DNA of 64,000 nt from Anaeromyxobacteraceae bacterium. GTDB taxonomy: Bacteria > Myxococcota > Myxococcia > Myxococcales > Anaeromyxobacteraceae. Under the pieces are notes generated by a model that saw nothing but the letters and a program-made list of their open reading frames with translations, was not told the DNA's origin and did no database searches. The DNA is taken from the NCBI GenBank assembly GCA_047602405.1, contig JASGHJ010000002.1:3584001-3648000 (forward strand), written 5' to 3'. Positions 58,838-63,622 of the stretch are shown piece by piece. Numbering within the stretch: the first letter of the stretch is position 1; the number at the start of each line of letters is the position of its first letter. The position numbers and the translations under genes are program-made.

Positions 58838-60512
58838 ATGGCTTTGGCTTCAAGCCCGGCGAACCCTGGAACCGAGAGCAGCGGCATCACTCGTGACGAG
58901 GTCCGCGTCATCTTCGCGTCCTCCCTCGGCACCGTCTTCGAGTGGTACGACTTCTACCTGTACGGCTCGCTGGCCGCGATCATCGCGAAGCAGTTCTTCT
59001 CCTCCCTCTCCGAGGCGAACGCGTTCATCTTCGCGCTCCTCTCGTTCTCGGCTGGCTTCGCGGTCCGCCCGTTCGGCGCCATCGTGTTCGGGCGCATCGG
59101 CGACCTGATCGGTCGCAAGTACACCTTCCTCGTCACCATCATGATCATGGGCCTCTCGACCACGGTCGTGGGCCTGTTGCCGGGCTACGCGACCATCGGG
59201 ATCGCGGCGCCGATCATCCTCATCGCCCTGCGCCTCCTCCAGGGCCTCGCGCTCGGCGGCGAGTACGGCGGCGCGGCGACCTACGTCGCCGAGCACGCGC
59301 CGCACGGCAAGCGCGGCCTCTTCACCGCGTGGATCCAGACGACCGCGACGGTGGGCCTCTTCATCTCCCTCCTCGTCATCTACGTCTGCCGCGCGACGAT
59401 GGGCCCCAAGTTCGACGAGTGGGGCTGGCGCATCCCGTTCCTCATCTCCCTCCTCCTCCTCATGATCTCCGTCTACATCCGGCTCCAGCTGCAGGAGTCG
59501 CCGGTGTTCAAGCGGATGAAGGCGGAGGGCAAGGGCTCGAAGGCTCCGCTGACCGAGTCGTTCCTCCGGTGGGGCAACCTCAAGATCGTGCTCCTCGTCG
59601 CTCTTCGGCGGCGTCGCCGGCCAGGCGGTGGTCTGGTACACGGGCATGTTCTACGAGCTCTTCTTCCTCACGCAGACCCTCAAGGTCGACGCGCAGACCG
59701 CGAACGTGTGGGTCGTCATCGCGCTCGTCCTCGCGACGCCGTTCTTCATCCTCTTCGGCTGGCTCTCCGACAAGATCGGCCGCAAGTGGATCATCATGGC
59801 GGGCTGCCTCATCGCCGCGCTGTCCTACCACTGGATCTTCCGTGAGCTGACCCACGCGGCGAACCCGGCCATCGAGGAGGCCGCGGCGAAGAACCCGATC
59901 GTCGTGACCGCGGATCCCGCGGAGTGCAGCTTCCAGTTCGACCCGGTCGGCGGCGCGCTGAAGTTCCGCAGCTCGTGCGACGTGGCGAAGACCTGGCTCG
60001 GCAACAAGCGCATCCCCTACGTGAACGCCGCGGCCGCGGCGGGCACGACCGCCTCCGTGAAGATCGGCGAGACGGTCATCTCGTCCTTCGACGGGCGCCC
60101 GATGGCGGGCCCGGACTTCAAGGCGAAGAGCGGCGAGTTCGACAAGGCGATGGCCGGCGCGGTCGCGGCGGCGGGTTACCCCGCGAAGGCGGATCCCACG
60201 CGCTTCAACGCGCCGATGGTGATCTTCCTCCTGTGGGTCCTCGCCGTGTACGTGACCATCGTGTACGGCCCGATCGCCGCCTGGCTCGTCGAGCTCTTCC
60301 CGACGCGCATCCGCTACACGTCGATGTCGCTGCCGTACCACATCGGCAACGGCTGGTTCGGCGGCTTCCTGCCCCCGATCGCGTTCGCCATGGTGGCCGC
60401 GTCCGGCGACATCTACTACGGCCTCTGGTACCCGATCGGCGTCGCGCTCATGACCTTCGTGATCGGCTCGCTGTTCATGCCGGAAACGAAGGACCGCGAC
60501 ATCCACGCGTAG
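58838..60512 (+). CDS. MHS-family MFS metabolite:H+ symporter (apparent frameshift near 59598)
   Basis: GTVFEWYDFYLY, RPFGAIVFG, GGEYGGA, VELFPTRIRYT. Confidence 0.9.
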
Positions 60513-60547
60513 GTTCGAGCAGGACAGCGGGGCCCTGGACCCGCAAG

Positions 60548-60589
60548 CCGCCCCCGCCCGGAGAGTCCGGGCGGGGGCGGTACTCTTTT
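60548..60589 (+). terminator. Intrinsic terminator after the MFS gene
   Basis: CCGCCCCCGCCCGGA-GAG-TCCGGGCGGGGGCGG followed by TACTCTTTT. Confidence 0.75.
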
Positions 60590-60593
60590 GGGA

Positions 60594-60821
60594 GGGATCG
60601 GGATCGAGATCGAGATCGGGATCGAGATCGGGATCGGGATCGGGATCGGGATCTGGGATCGGGATCGGGATCGGGATCTGGGATCGGGATCGAGATGGGG
60701 ATCGGGATCGGGAGTCGCGATCTGTCCCACATCCCGACTCCCACATCCCGACTCCCACATCCCGACTCCCACATCCCGACTCCCACATCCCGATCCCAGG
60801 TCCCGATCCCGATCGCGATCC
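60594..60821. repeat. (GRGATC)n array, 14-mer (TCCCACATCCCGAC)x4-5 and inverted TCCCGA units
   Basis: About 19 GATC sites in 60596-60722; 14-mer copies start at 60725, 60739, 60753, 60767 and 60781. Confidence 0.9.
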
Positions 60822-60850
60822 GCCTCACGTGGATGAGGGGCTGTCTCCGG

Positions 60851-60983
60851 CCTTTCGATTGGGGGCTGCGTCTGGTGGGACGGCGCACGTTTCGCGCCGG
60901 GCCACCGCTCGTCGCGCTCGACCCTGGGCCCGTCACGAAACCTGCGCCGGGAGGTGGGGCAGACGCAGCCCCCAACCGAAAGG
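60851..60983 (+). ncRNA. Conserved structured 5' leader, copy 1 (candidate cis-regulatory RNA)
   Basis: Nested stems 60851-74/60960-83, 60882-94/60936-48 and 60898-903/60927-32; sequesters GAAAGG. Confidence 0.6.
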
Positions 60984-60992
60984 AACCTCCCG

Positions 60993-61343
60993 ATGTCTTC
61001 CTCCTCCATCTCCTGCACCCCCACCTTCCACGCCTACGCCGTCGCCATCCAGCTCGCGAGAGCCGTGCGTTCCGTCATCCCGCTCGTCGCCCGCCACGAT
61101 CCCTCGCTCGCAGACCAGCTCCGCCGTGCGGTCACCTCCGTTCCGCTGAACGTCGCCGAGGGCAACCGCCGCGCGGGTAAGGACCGCCCTCACCACTTCC
61201 GCGTCGCGCTCGGGTCGGCCTCCGAGGTCCAGGCGTGCCTCGACGTGGCCGAGGCACTCGGGTATCTCGCCTGCGAGGCCGTGCAGCCGGCCCTCGCGCC
61301 CGCGGATCGCGTGCAGCGGCTGCTCCGCGGGCTCACCCGGTGA
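60993..61343 (+). CDS. Four-helix-bundle protein (23S rRNA IVS / Avd-like family)
   Basis: LADQLRRAVTSVPLNVAEG...F.VALGSASEV...L.VA...GY. Confidence 0.88.
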   Translation: MSSSSISCTPTFHAYAVAIQLARAVRSVIPLVARHDPSLADQLRRAVTSVPLNVAEGNRRAGKDRPHHFRVALGSASEVQACLDVAEALGYLACEAVQPALAPADRVQRLLRGLTR

Positions 61344-61350
61344 GGCCGGT

Positions 61351-61379
61351 CCGGGCGGGGCCACCCCGGCCCCGCCCGG
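61351..61379. terminator. Hairpin between the convergent four-helix genes
   Basis: CCGGGCGGGGCC / GGCCCCGCCCGG 12-bp stem. Confidence 0.55.
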
Positions 61380-61386
61380 CAGGCGA

Positions 61387-61728
61387 CTACGCCGCCCGCG
61401 GCGCCGTGAGGCGCCAGAGCATGCCGAGGAGGCGATCGCAGGCGCGGAGGGCAGGCTCCGCGTCGGCGGAGGAAACGTAGCCCCACGCCAGGGCGACGTG
61501 GAGCGCCGCCCGGACCTCGTCCGCGCTGCCGGCGGCGATGCGGAAGGAGTGGAGGCGATCCTTGCCCACGCGCCGGTTGCCCTCCGCGAGGTTGAGCGGG
61601 ATGGACGACGCCGCGCGGGAGAGCTGATCGGCGAGCGAGGCGTCGCGCCGCGCGAGCGCGCCGCGAAGGTCGCGGAGAGAGGCGATGACGGCGAGGGCGA
61701 CGTCGTACGCGATGAAGGTGGAGGACAT
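61387..61728 (-). CDS. Four-helix-bundle protein, second paralogue
   Basis: LADQLSRAASSIPLNLAEG...FRIAAGSADEV...WGY. Confidence 0.88.
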   Translation of the reverse strand: MSSTFIAYDVALAVIASLRDLRGALARRDASLADQLSRAASSIPLNLAEGNRRVGKDRLHSFRIAAGSADEVRAALHVALAWGYVSSADAEPALRACDRLLGMLWRLTAPRAA

Positions 61729-61735
61729 GGAGAGG

Positions 61736-61873
61736 CTCCTTTCGGCTGTGGGCTGCGTCTGCCCCCTTCCCGGCGCAGGTTTCATGACGGGCCCCGGGAC
61801 CGAGCGAACGCGAGCGGTGGCCCGGCAGGAAACGTGCGCCGTCCAAGCAGACGCAGCCCACAGCCGCAAGGAG
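61736..61873 (-). ncRNA. Conserved structured 5' leader, copy 2
   Basis: Same nested stems as copy 1 with compensatory changes in the outer stem; sequesters AAGGAG. Confidence 0.6.
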
Positions 61874-61963
61874 GCCGGCGACCGCCCAATCACAAGAGTG
61901 ACGGCCCCCTCACCCGCCAGCGGGAACATTCACTCCGAGTCGGGCAGTCCGGGTCTGCCCCCC

Positions 61964-62051
61964 CTCCGCCTCCGTCTCCGTCTCCGTCTCCGCCTCCGCC
62001 TCCGCCTCCGCCTCCGCCTCCGCCTCCGCCTCCGCCTCCGCCTCCGTCTCC
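61964..62051. repeat. (CTCCGY)x14 hexamer microsatellite
   Basis: Read directly. Confidence 0.92.
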
Positions 62052-62064
62052 CCAAGAATGAGAA

Positions 62065-62092
62065 GCCCGCCCGCTCTCTCGAGCGGACGGGC
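62065..62092 (-). terminator. Hairpin downstream of amtB
   Basis: GCCCGCCCGCTC-TCTC-GAGCGGACGGGC, followed by TTCTCATTCTT on the minus strand. Confidence 0.5.
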
Positions 62093-62118
62093 CCCCGACA
62101 CCCGGACTCCGACCTACC

Positions 62119-63522
62119 CTACTGCGCCACCGCAGCCGGCACGCTGGACGCGGCGGCCGAAGGCGCCGCCGCGCCGGTCGAGTCGGAATCCCCCGAGATG
62201 TACGCCCGCTCGCCCGCGTCGACCTGGTCCATGCCCGCCCACTGGTCCTGCTGGTCCGCCGCGAGCGGCGTGATCGCCCCGACGACCTTGTAGAGCCCGA
62301 ACGACAGCACCCCGGAGAAGGCCATCGTCACGACGACCCCCAGGGCCTGCTTCCCGAGGAGCACGAGGGATCCATCCGCCCCGGCCGAGTTGACCGCGGT
62401 GGACGCGAACACCCCGGTGAGGAGCGCGCCGAGCGTGGCCGCGACGCCGTGGACGGCGAAGACGTCGAGCGAGTCGTCGAGCCCGAGCTTCGGGCGGATG
62501 CGGATGGCCGTGAAGGACGCGAGCGCGGCGAGGCCGCCGATGACGAGGCCGGAGGCCGGCTTCACGAAGCCCGCGGCGGGGGTGATGGCGACCATGCCGG
62601 CGACCGCGCCGGAGGCGAGGCCGACGCCGGAGATCTTGCCGTGGAGGAAGAGCTCGGCGAGGCCCCAGGCCGCGGCGGCGGCCGCGGGGGCGAAGAAGGT
62701 GTTCACGAAGGCGGTCGAGGCGAGGCCGTTCGCCGCGAGCGCGGAGCCGCCGTTGAAGCCGAGCCAGCCGAACCAGAGCAGGCCCATGCCGAGGATCGCG
62801 AAGGGCACGTTGTGCGGGAGCACGGTCGGGCTCCGCAGGTTCGCGCGCTTGCCGATCACGATCGCGCCGACGAGGGCGGCGGCGGCGGCGTTGATGTGGA
62901 CGACGGTGCCGCCGGCGAAGTCGAGGACGCCGAGGCCGCGGAGCCAGCCGCCCGGGGCCCAGACCCAGTGCGCGACCGGCGAGTAGACGATGAGGCTCCA
63001 GAGCGCGGTGAAGAGCACGAACGCCTTCGTCCGCACCCGCTCGACGAGGGCGCCGGAGATCAGCGCCGGGGTGATGACCGCGAACATGCCCTGGAAGAGC
63101 ATGAAGGCGGAGTGCGGGATGGTGGCCGAGAGCGAGGCCTCCGGCGCGTCGCCGACGCCGGTGAGGAACGACCAGGAGAGGCCGCCGATGAAGGCGTCGA
63201 GCTTGCCGCCCGGAGAGAACGAGAGGCTGTAGCCGACCACCGCCCACAGCACGCCGATGAAGGCCATGCAGACGATCGAGAGGTTCATCGTCTGGACGGC
63301 GTTCTTCGCGCGCACGAGGCCGCCGTAGAAGAAGGCGAGGCCCGGCGTCATGAGCATCACGAGGCCGGCCGAGACGAGCACGAGGGCCGTGTCGCCCGTG
63401 TCGATCTTCGCGGGCGGCGCGTCCTCGGCGAGGGCGATCAGCGGCGCGGCGAGCGCGAGCCCGCCGAGGGCGAGGCGGGTGGCCCAGGCACGGGCGGTCG
63501 AGGGAGCGGCGGGACGGGTCAT
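62119..63522 (-). CDS. amtB: Ammonium transporter
   Basis: MTPGLAFFYGG, FQGMFAVITPALISG, DFAGGTVVH, WFGWLGFNGGS, DDSLDVFAVHG. Confidence 0.96.
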   Translation of the reverse strand: MTRPAAPSTARAWATRLALGGLALAAPLIALAEDAPPAKIDTGDTALVLVSAGLVMLMTPGLAFFYGGLVRAKNAVQTMNLSIVCMAFIGVLWAVVGYSLSFSPGGKLDAFIGGLSWSFLTGVGDAPEASLSATIPHSAFMLFQGMFAVITPALISGALVERVRTKAFVLFTALWSLIVYSPVAHWVWAPGGWLRGLGVLDFAGGTVVHINAAAAALVGAIVIGKRANLRSPTVLPHNVPFAILGMGLLWFGWLGFNGGSALAANGLASTAFVNTFFAPAAAAAAWGLAELFLHGKISGVGLASGAVAGMVAITPAAGFVKPASGLVIGGLAALASFTAIRIRPKLGLDDSLDVFAVHGVAATLGALLTGVFASTAVNSAGADGSLVLLGKQALGVVVTMAFSGVLSFGLYKVVGAITPLAADQQDQWAGMDQVDAGERAYISGDSDSTGAAAPSAAASSVPAAVAQ

Positions 63523-63606: not shown

Positions 63607-63622
63607 TGCACGTGGCATGCCC
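63607..63622 (-). promoter_or_regulatory. Sigma54 promoter candidate for amtB
   Basis: Minus strand GGGCATGCCACGTGCA (GG-N10-GC); TGCAC half-sites just upstream. Confidence 0.55.

Follow-up and report, generated by a model that had tools for sequence, protein, structure and literature searches.

A palindromic two-gene cassette, present in scattered copies in the genome of a soil bacterium, was identified in the window (the whole 64,000-nucleotide stretch of Anaeromyxobacteraceae DNA analysed here). Each of its two genes is preceded by a copy of one leader hairpin. The leader family is real and undescribed, and the palindromic cassette on which it sits looks mobile. The leader is most likely, though by no means certainly, a sigma-54 promoter palindrome combined with a lock on the ribosome-binding site (RBS), carried by a palindromic, non-autonomous mobile cassette of PF05635 genes.

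The convergent PF05635 pair forms one imperfect palindrome of approximately 1.1 kb, with tandem arrays of 6- to 14-nt units on both flanks. The gene pair was predicted to fold as a single rod of approximately 1.1 kb, centred on a common hairpin. The features of the locus, in window coordinates, are as follows.

60548-60589, + strand: terminator-like hairpin and T run of the host, 3' of the MFS transporter gene, at the left edge of the insert (read from sequence; the same hairpin lies ahead of the array in the close relative G010)
60594-60821, no strand: left tandem arrays comprising GGGATC hexamers, a 14-mer array and then GATCCC; the arrays themselves form a hairpin
60831-60845, + strand: GGRTGAGGGG motif, a leftover of a separate REP-like hairpin, outside the leader core
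60846-60988, + strand: leader A, entire hairpin
60851-60874, + strand: outer 5' arm of leader A, an inverted copy of the 5' UTR and RBS (anti-Shine-Dalgarno)
60885-60899, - strand: sigma-54-type motif with the canonical GG at -24, pointing away from gene A
60931-60945, + strand: sigma-54-type motif with T at -24, pointing to gene A; predicted start at about 60957
60960-60983, + strand: outer 3' arm of leader A, containing the RBS
60993-61343, + strand: gene A, PF05635/TIGR02436 four-helix-bundle protein of 116 aa
61351-61379, no strand: GC-rich central hairpin between the stop codons, the axis of the palindrome, found in 4/4 copies
61387-61728, - strand: gene B, PF05635/TIGR02436 protein of 113 aa, a relative of the solved XCC0516 (2gsc, E 3.8e-6)
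61733-61876, - strand: leader B, entire hairpin
61775-61789, - strand: sigma-54-type motif with T at -24, pointing to gene B; predicted start at about 61763
61823-61837, + strand: partner sigma-54-type motif with GG at -24, pointing away from gene B, with two departures from the TGGCACG consensus
61900-61915, - strand: GGGTGAGGGG motif inside a REP-like hairpin remnant
61963-62051, no strand: right tandem array of CCTCCG hexamers

Two observations concern the host DNA on either side. The MFS transporter gene (58838-60512, + strand) is split between two reading frames that overlap at about 59600-59630, through either a genuine frameshift or a mistake in the assembly. A sigma-54-type site with canonical spacing was read from the sequence at 63607-63622 (- strand), upstream of an ammonium transporter gene.

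Both proteins pass the curated cut-offs of PF05635 (68.6 and 61.6 bits against 33.8) and TIGR02436 (68.4 and 63.2 against 24). Purifying selection acts on the ORFs (median dN/dS of 0.42 over 923 non-independent pairs), so the protein is made at some time. The PF05635 family is described as homologous to Avd in the available text of PMC10053308; an Avd-like helper role for the protein in copying the cassette would be a guess by analogy.

The leaders are approximately 143 nt long and near-identical, and the motifs quoted for them in the initial annotation were all found in place. As had been judged by eye, the leaders (87% identity) are more alike than the last 315 nt of the ORFs (71%) or the two proteins (52%). 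Their outer arms are 96% complementary and their folding z-scores are -3.7 and -6.0. The same three-stem fold had been proposed for both; in minimum-energy and centroid structures of the sense RNA it was adopted by copy 2 but not by copy 1. Covariation of the stems was confirmed in an alignment of 26 leaders, in which 96.4% of cells were paired and 9 of 35 pairs had changed on both sides; the covariation score was matched by 0 of 500 shuffles, the leaders being kin and not independent. Comparison with Rfam gave no match at the gathering score in the window, and at the E-value threshold only sub-threshold hairpin matches were obtained in 60500-62120. No description of the leader or cassette was found in a literature search that covered mainly openly accessible papers.

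A further shared motif, GGRTGAGGGG(G)CYGTC, had been reported upstream of both genes. The exact-type pattern occurs four times in the genome, each time at the end of a cassette, whereas 34 occurrences were counted for its core GGGTGAGGGG. As a component of the leader the motif was discarded: it belongs to a separate REP-like hairpin that is also found away from cassettes, and it is absent from the leaders of most relatives. In some relatives (L041, L042, L043, L052 and L053), a further family of REP-like hairpins occupies the interval that separates the arrays from the leader.

Read as DNA, the inner stem is an imperfect inverted repeat of two back-to-back sigma-54-type motifs, G[G/T]-N10-GC. 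The outward-pointing (partner) arm reads YGGCR(C/G)G-N4-GTGC in 55/55 leaders, with Y at -26, GG at -24 and R at -22. The gene-facing arm reads YGTCAYG-N4-CT(G)C; the spacing from GG/GT to GC is 10 nt in 54/55, and GT stands at -24 in all 54 of these. The 'conserved mismatches' of the stem sit on promoter positions, the C-C at -15 and the C.A and C.U oppositions at -22 and -24. The partner arm comes near the sigma-54 consensus, given as TGGCACG-4N-TTGC(T/A) in the available part of PMC7910581, which also reports one-base changes in GG or GC among characterised M. xanthus promoters. GG and GT are swapped at -24 between homologous leaders of a second clade of convergent pairs (L174/L169 and L170/L176), and GG is found at -24 in L185, a metagenomic member of the window's leader family. 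Sigma-54 is encoded in this genome. The genome's ninth PF05635 gene and the gene at L045 are without the hairpin or a clear Shine-Dalgarno sequence (SD) and carry a canonical site with the ATG at +4 and +3, respectively; given 59 canonical sites in 12.3 Mb, a chance match within 40 nt is expected at about 2 in 10,000. The same motif pair, with unrelated spacers, precedes four-helix genes in other families (G190, G052 and G417), although in G190 the bases ahead of the ATG could be an ordinary SD.

Several observations count against the sigma-54 reading. The canonical base at -24 is not T, and the T form matches at 11 places in the genome, of which 8 are the cassettes themselves. The 14 best-consensus sites of the genome all end in TGCT, whereas the cassette motifs end in TGCG, with G at -11. 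A genome-wide test of half-site spacing was not clean. Spacer bases covary between the arms and the GCGCC beyond -12 is invariant, both of which are superfluous for two plain promoters; because the spacer covaries, pairing matters too.

Under the favoured reading the leader would serve as an expression module at either end of the cassette. The gene-facing motif would be the cassette's own sigma-54 promoter, from which RNA would start just inside the outer 3' arm and so leave the RBS free. Read-through RNA from an upstream host gene would contain the 5' arm, the long stem would fold and this RNA would stay untranslated, such that protein would be made only from the cassette's own promoter. A promoter and RBS lock of their own may explain how expression of these long-enigmatic genes is confined to the right moment. 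That the motif is a promoter, and that the promoter regulates the genes in this way, is what we infer from the sequence.

The 5' arm of the outer stem mirrors the 5' UTR and RBS and lies upstream of the predicted start, which is placed 12 nt after -12 and coincides with the beginning of the outer 3' arm. That the outer stem buries the RBS, as originally proposed, was supported for read-through RNA by the computed cost of opening the ribosome site. The median cost was 22.5 kcal/mol for read-through against 7.8 kcal/mol for own-start RNA and was lower for own-start RNA in 52/52 leaders, although a shorter RNA is easier to open anyway. The two window copies gave 12.0 versus 5.0 and 16.8 versus 6.9 kcal/mol. 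SD unpairing, a cruder measure, agreed overall (median 0.002 versus 0.35), but copy 1 disagreed. Read-through is plausible because genes A and B are each downstream of a co-oriented host gene. In the second clade, the same motif lies 100-125 nt before the ATG and the RBS hairpin is downstream of the motif, inside the predicted own transcript (14/14 leaders computed). Own-start RNA is there as blocked as read-through RNA (29-39 kcal/mol, 14/14), which argues against the own-promoter reading. The RBS hairpin without the inner module in other lineages (L177, L179, L336 and the G118 copies) also argues against the favoured reading.

A covariance model was built from 26 leaders and run against 92 family genomes, where it found homologues of the leader in 19 genomes and 5 of 11 genera, two of the genomes weakly; PF05635 itself is in 49 of the 92. 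The model was also run on 56 of the fetched loci. The leader motif is present in named Anaeromyxobacter and Anaeromyxobacteraceae records. Among 56 distinct sense-oriented leaders, 52 precede four-helix genes (51 ORFs and one internally deleted copy), in line with the proposed association, and the remaining four lie at contig ends. A tandem array is located within 250 nt upstream of 40 of these 52 leaders, compared with 12 of 2000 random windows. At L047 (G025), two identical leader-gene units, each beside a transposase-like gene, form a large inverted duplication around a low-GC stretch of approximately 2 kb. The four-helix genes at L318-L320 (G190) and L127 (G085) are divergent, not convergent, each with its own motif.

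When 401 genomes of the phylum were searched for the bare two-motif pattern, 25 of them yielded 69 matches in total; the reversed control yielded 3. Nineteen of the 69 lie outside the family. Eight of these precede four-helix genes (three in G190, four in G052 and one in G417), and a further G052 match has the RBS hairpin without a recognised ORF. Four are at the 3' ends of a multi-copy element in G120, pointing inward (L339, L363, L368 and L369); one copy of the element was confirmed as a DUF222-HNH gene, and DUF222 was not found in the genome under study. One match is in an island-like locus, where the palindrome separates two divergent small ORFs (L362:1501-1562; L375) among VWA, AAA-type and WYL-type genes, of which Pfam confirms VWA only. 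Matches in G038, G189, G382, G405 and G410 were set aside as chance-like, there being no four-helix gene behind them. A plasmid search gave no match. Viral contigs gave no protein relative and contained the motif at two loci, of which the one inspected was inside a portal-like gene and chance-like.

The window pair is one of four whole-pair copies in the genome (C2:3644.8k, which is the window copy, C2:8k, C1:317k and C1:2167k), a point missed in the first reading. The ninth PF05635 gene stands alone, and a gene-B remnant is located at C2:349.2k. Short tandem arrays were found on both sides at 5/5 loci (the four pairs and the lone gene). Four gene-less inverted tandem-array hairpins were also seen, at C2:199.5k, 235.9k, 287.4k and 1411.5k; the 287.4k site is filled in G010. 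Two A-gene leaders share 90-94% identity with B leaders and 86-87% with the window's A leader, while their ORFs group with A; judged from sequence, the two leaders of a pair appear to be kept alike through sequence exchange.

One of the options in the initial annotation, a small non-autonomous mobile cassette, was strengthened by the four copies, the filled and empty sites and the patchy distribution. Relatives show filled, cleanly empty and footprint-only sites. The C1:2167k site is cleanly empty in G010; the same two flanking genes, with gaps below 400 nt, define an empty site at 21 of 24 other fetched loci, and the other three have different neighbours. The L043 site is filled in G010 and holds only a short repeat hairpin in the genome under study (G000). 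The reverse applies at the C2:8k site, which is filled in G000 and carries only a footprint in G010. Behind the window's MFS gene, an array or leader was found only in G000 and G010 among 30 loci fetched, two of which end at contig edges and some of which may be paralogues.

The single clean junction (G000 versus G010) showed no target-site duplication, and the copies inspected showed neither a transposase nor a reverse transcriptase next to them. A search for a cognate transposase gave only weak Y1_Tnp matches elsewhere in the genome. The eight RVT_1 matches in the genome are each more than 90 kb from any copy. Seven reverse-transcriptase matches (C1:439.6k and six more) have identical scores and frame lengths and are probably one multi-copy group II intron. 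When C1:2166.8k and C1:2168.5k were compared with L262, the host bases beside the insertion were found to have become rich in purines on one flank and in pyrimidines on the opposite flank; the shift reaches synonymous codons before the stop, as if lengthening the cassette hairpin. At L270, L272, L274, L277 and L283, differing short arrays directly follow the same acylphosphatase-like stop codon in different lineages, which suggests a recurrent target.

The headline option of the initial annotation was a cis-acting structured RNA, either a translational switch or an autoregulatory site, whose conserved internal loops would be bound by the four-helix protein. The covariation is real, the C.C and C.U oppositions are invariant, the leader is tightly linked to the gene, and the protein family is homologous to Avd (PMC10053308, available part); moreover, RBS hairpins have been kept in clades whose own-start RNA remains blocked, and some factor must therefore open them. 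Against this, the sense stems hold 22 A.C cells and only 4 G.U alongside 1778 Watson-Crick cells, and the opposite strand folds better than the sense strand (38/56 leaders as RNA, 56/56 as DNA). The 'loops' fall on -24, -22 and -15 of a fixed-spacing promoter pattern, copy 1 does not adopt the three-stem fold, and the module is missing at many PF05635 genes. A transcription start downstream of the 5' arm had been named as the observation that would speak against a transcribed hairpin, and the start predicted from the motif lies there. A protein-bound RNA switch is not favoured and we consider it improbable. An invertible promoter is likewise not favoured: all 56 gene-adjacent leaders are in one orientation, although that motif was the basis of their selection, and a gene-less module in the flipped orientation is present at L052. 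It is very improbable that the hairpins are a mechanical by-product with no regulatory role, that is, inverted duplications made and homogenised by template switching in a palindromic element. Inverted copies are indeed found at all scales, among them promoter, RBS, gene pair and arrays, the 5' arm of L186 mirrors even the first codons, and sequence is exchanged among leaders. The arm asymmetries at -24, -22 and -15 nevertheless persist over at least five genera whose loop sequences cannot be aligned, and since homogenisation alone would erase these three asymmetries, this origin is disfavoured.

The remaining alternative extends the favoured promoter-and-lock reading without excluding it. The template strand, folded as single-stranded DNA, would form a promoter or priming signal in which the partner arm takes the part of a canonical sigma-54 non-template strand and the fold already contains a bubble and a downstream duplex, and the chromosomal gene-facing copy would be off because of its T at -24. 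We regard this as unlikely, and as slightly more doubtful its full form, in which a sigma-54-dependent single-stranded-DNA promoter leaves the cassette silent in the chromosome and Avd-like proteins are made only from a single-stranded, rod-folded copy. The template-strand DNA hairpin is the more stable one in 56/56 leaders and in 13 of the 16 other-type modules, but a bias toward A/T-to-G/C substitutions in the 5' arm could yield part of this asymmetry. In 51 leaders of the window's family, positions -30 to -9 are predicted to be paired except -24 and -15, those at -7 to -3 to be open (pairing about 0.1), and those downstream to be paired again. The module also occurs at the 3' ends of the multi-copy DUF222-HNH element, pointing inward, and in the island-like locus. 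Sigma-54 normally depends on an activator even on pre-melted DNA, which counts against this reading, as do the unattested single-stranded form of the cassette, the 9-nt spacing of the partner arm in 6 of 16 other-type modules and the gene-facing GG in 4 of 67 modules. In its favour, the second-clade loops are GC-GAA-GC on the template strand, described as a very stable DNA mini-hairpin in the accessible text of PMC13037366, and Frpo uses the same principle with sigma-70 boxes (PMC9849209, available part). If true, this would give Frpo a first sigma-54 equivalent and offer direct access to the way in which repeat-armed PF05635 cassettes spread without a transposase.

PF05635 four-helix genes are widespread and their role is unexplained in the literature available to us, where the one studied in vivo appears untranslated. 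In the myxobacterial copies a control module can be read, so that the timing of the protein, the sigma-54 drive and the existence of a single-stranded cassette become testable. A covarying 'RNA motif' can also prove to be a DNA promoter palindrome.

Known systems, as described in the parts of the cited sources that were available, resemble the cassette in different respects. Insulated sigma-54 promoters (Levy et al., bioRxiv 10.1101/086108) are alike in that an anti-SD upstream of the start silences read-through and spares the promoter's own RNA. They use scattered CT-rich motifs of 3-5 nt at ordinary promoters, whereas the cassette has a near-perfect stem of 24-30 bp, a palindromic promoter and multiple copies. 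The left end of IS200 (PMC4513863) is that of a small mobile element whose one gene is shielded from incoming transcription and has its SD buried in an inverted repeat; the products of IS200 are an HUH transposase and an antisense RNA, whereas the cassette gene is PF05635 and no transposase was seen. The 23S rRNA intervening sequences with S23p (PMC4990558) share the protein family, a gene within an inverted repeat and short tandem repeats beside it, and the Coxiella intervening-sequence ORF lies beside heptamer repeats and appears untranslated in vivo (PMC4990558). Unlike these, the cassette is intergenic with paired genes, a strong SD and an apparent promoter of its own. Identification as a 23S rRNA intervening sequence was rejected, since 4/4 copies lie between protein-coding genes and there is no rRNA in the window. 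The DGR protein Avd has a homologous four-helix fold (PMC10053308); a DGR was rejected, no reverse transcriptase or template/variable repeat having been seen beside the copies inspected. Frpo (PMC9849209) is alike in its imperfect palindrome, through which a single DNA strand could reconstitute a promoter. Its boxes are of the -10/-35 type and it is found in plasmid leading regions, whereas the cassette has -12/-24 boxes predicted from its sequence and is chromosomal.
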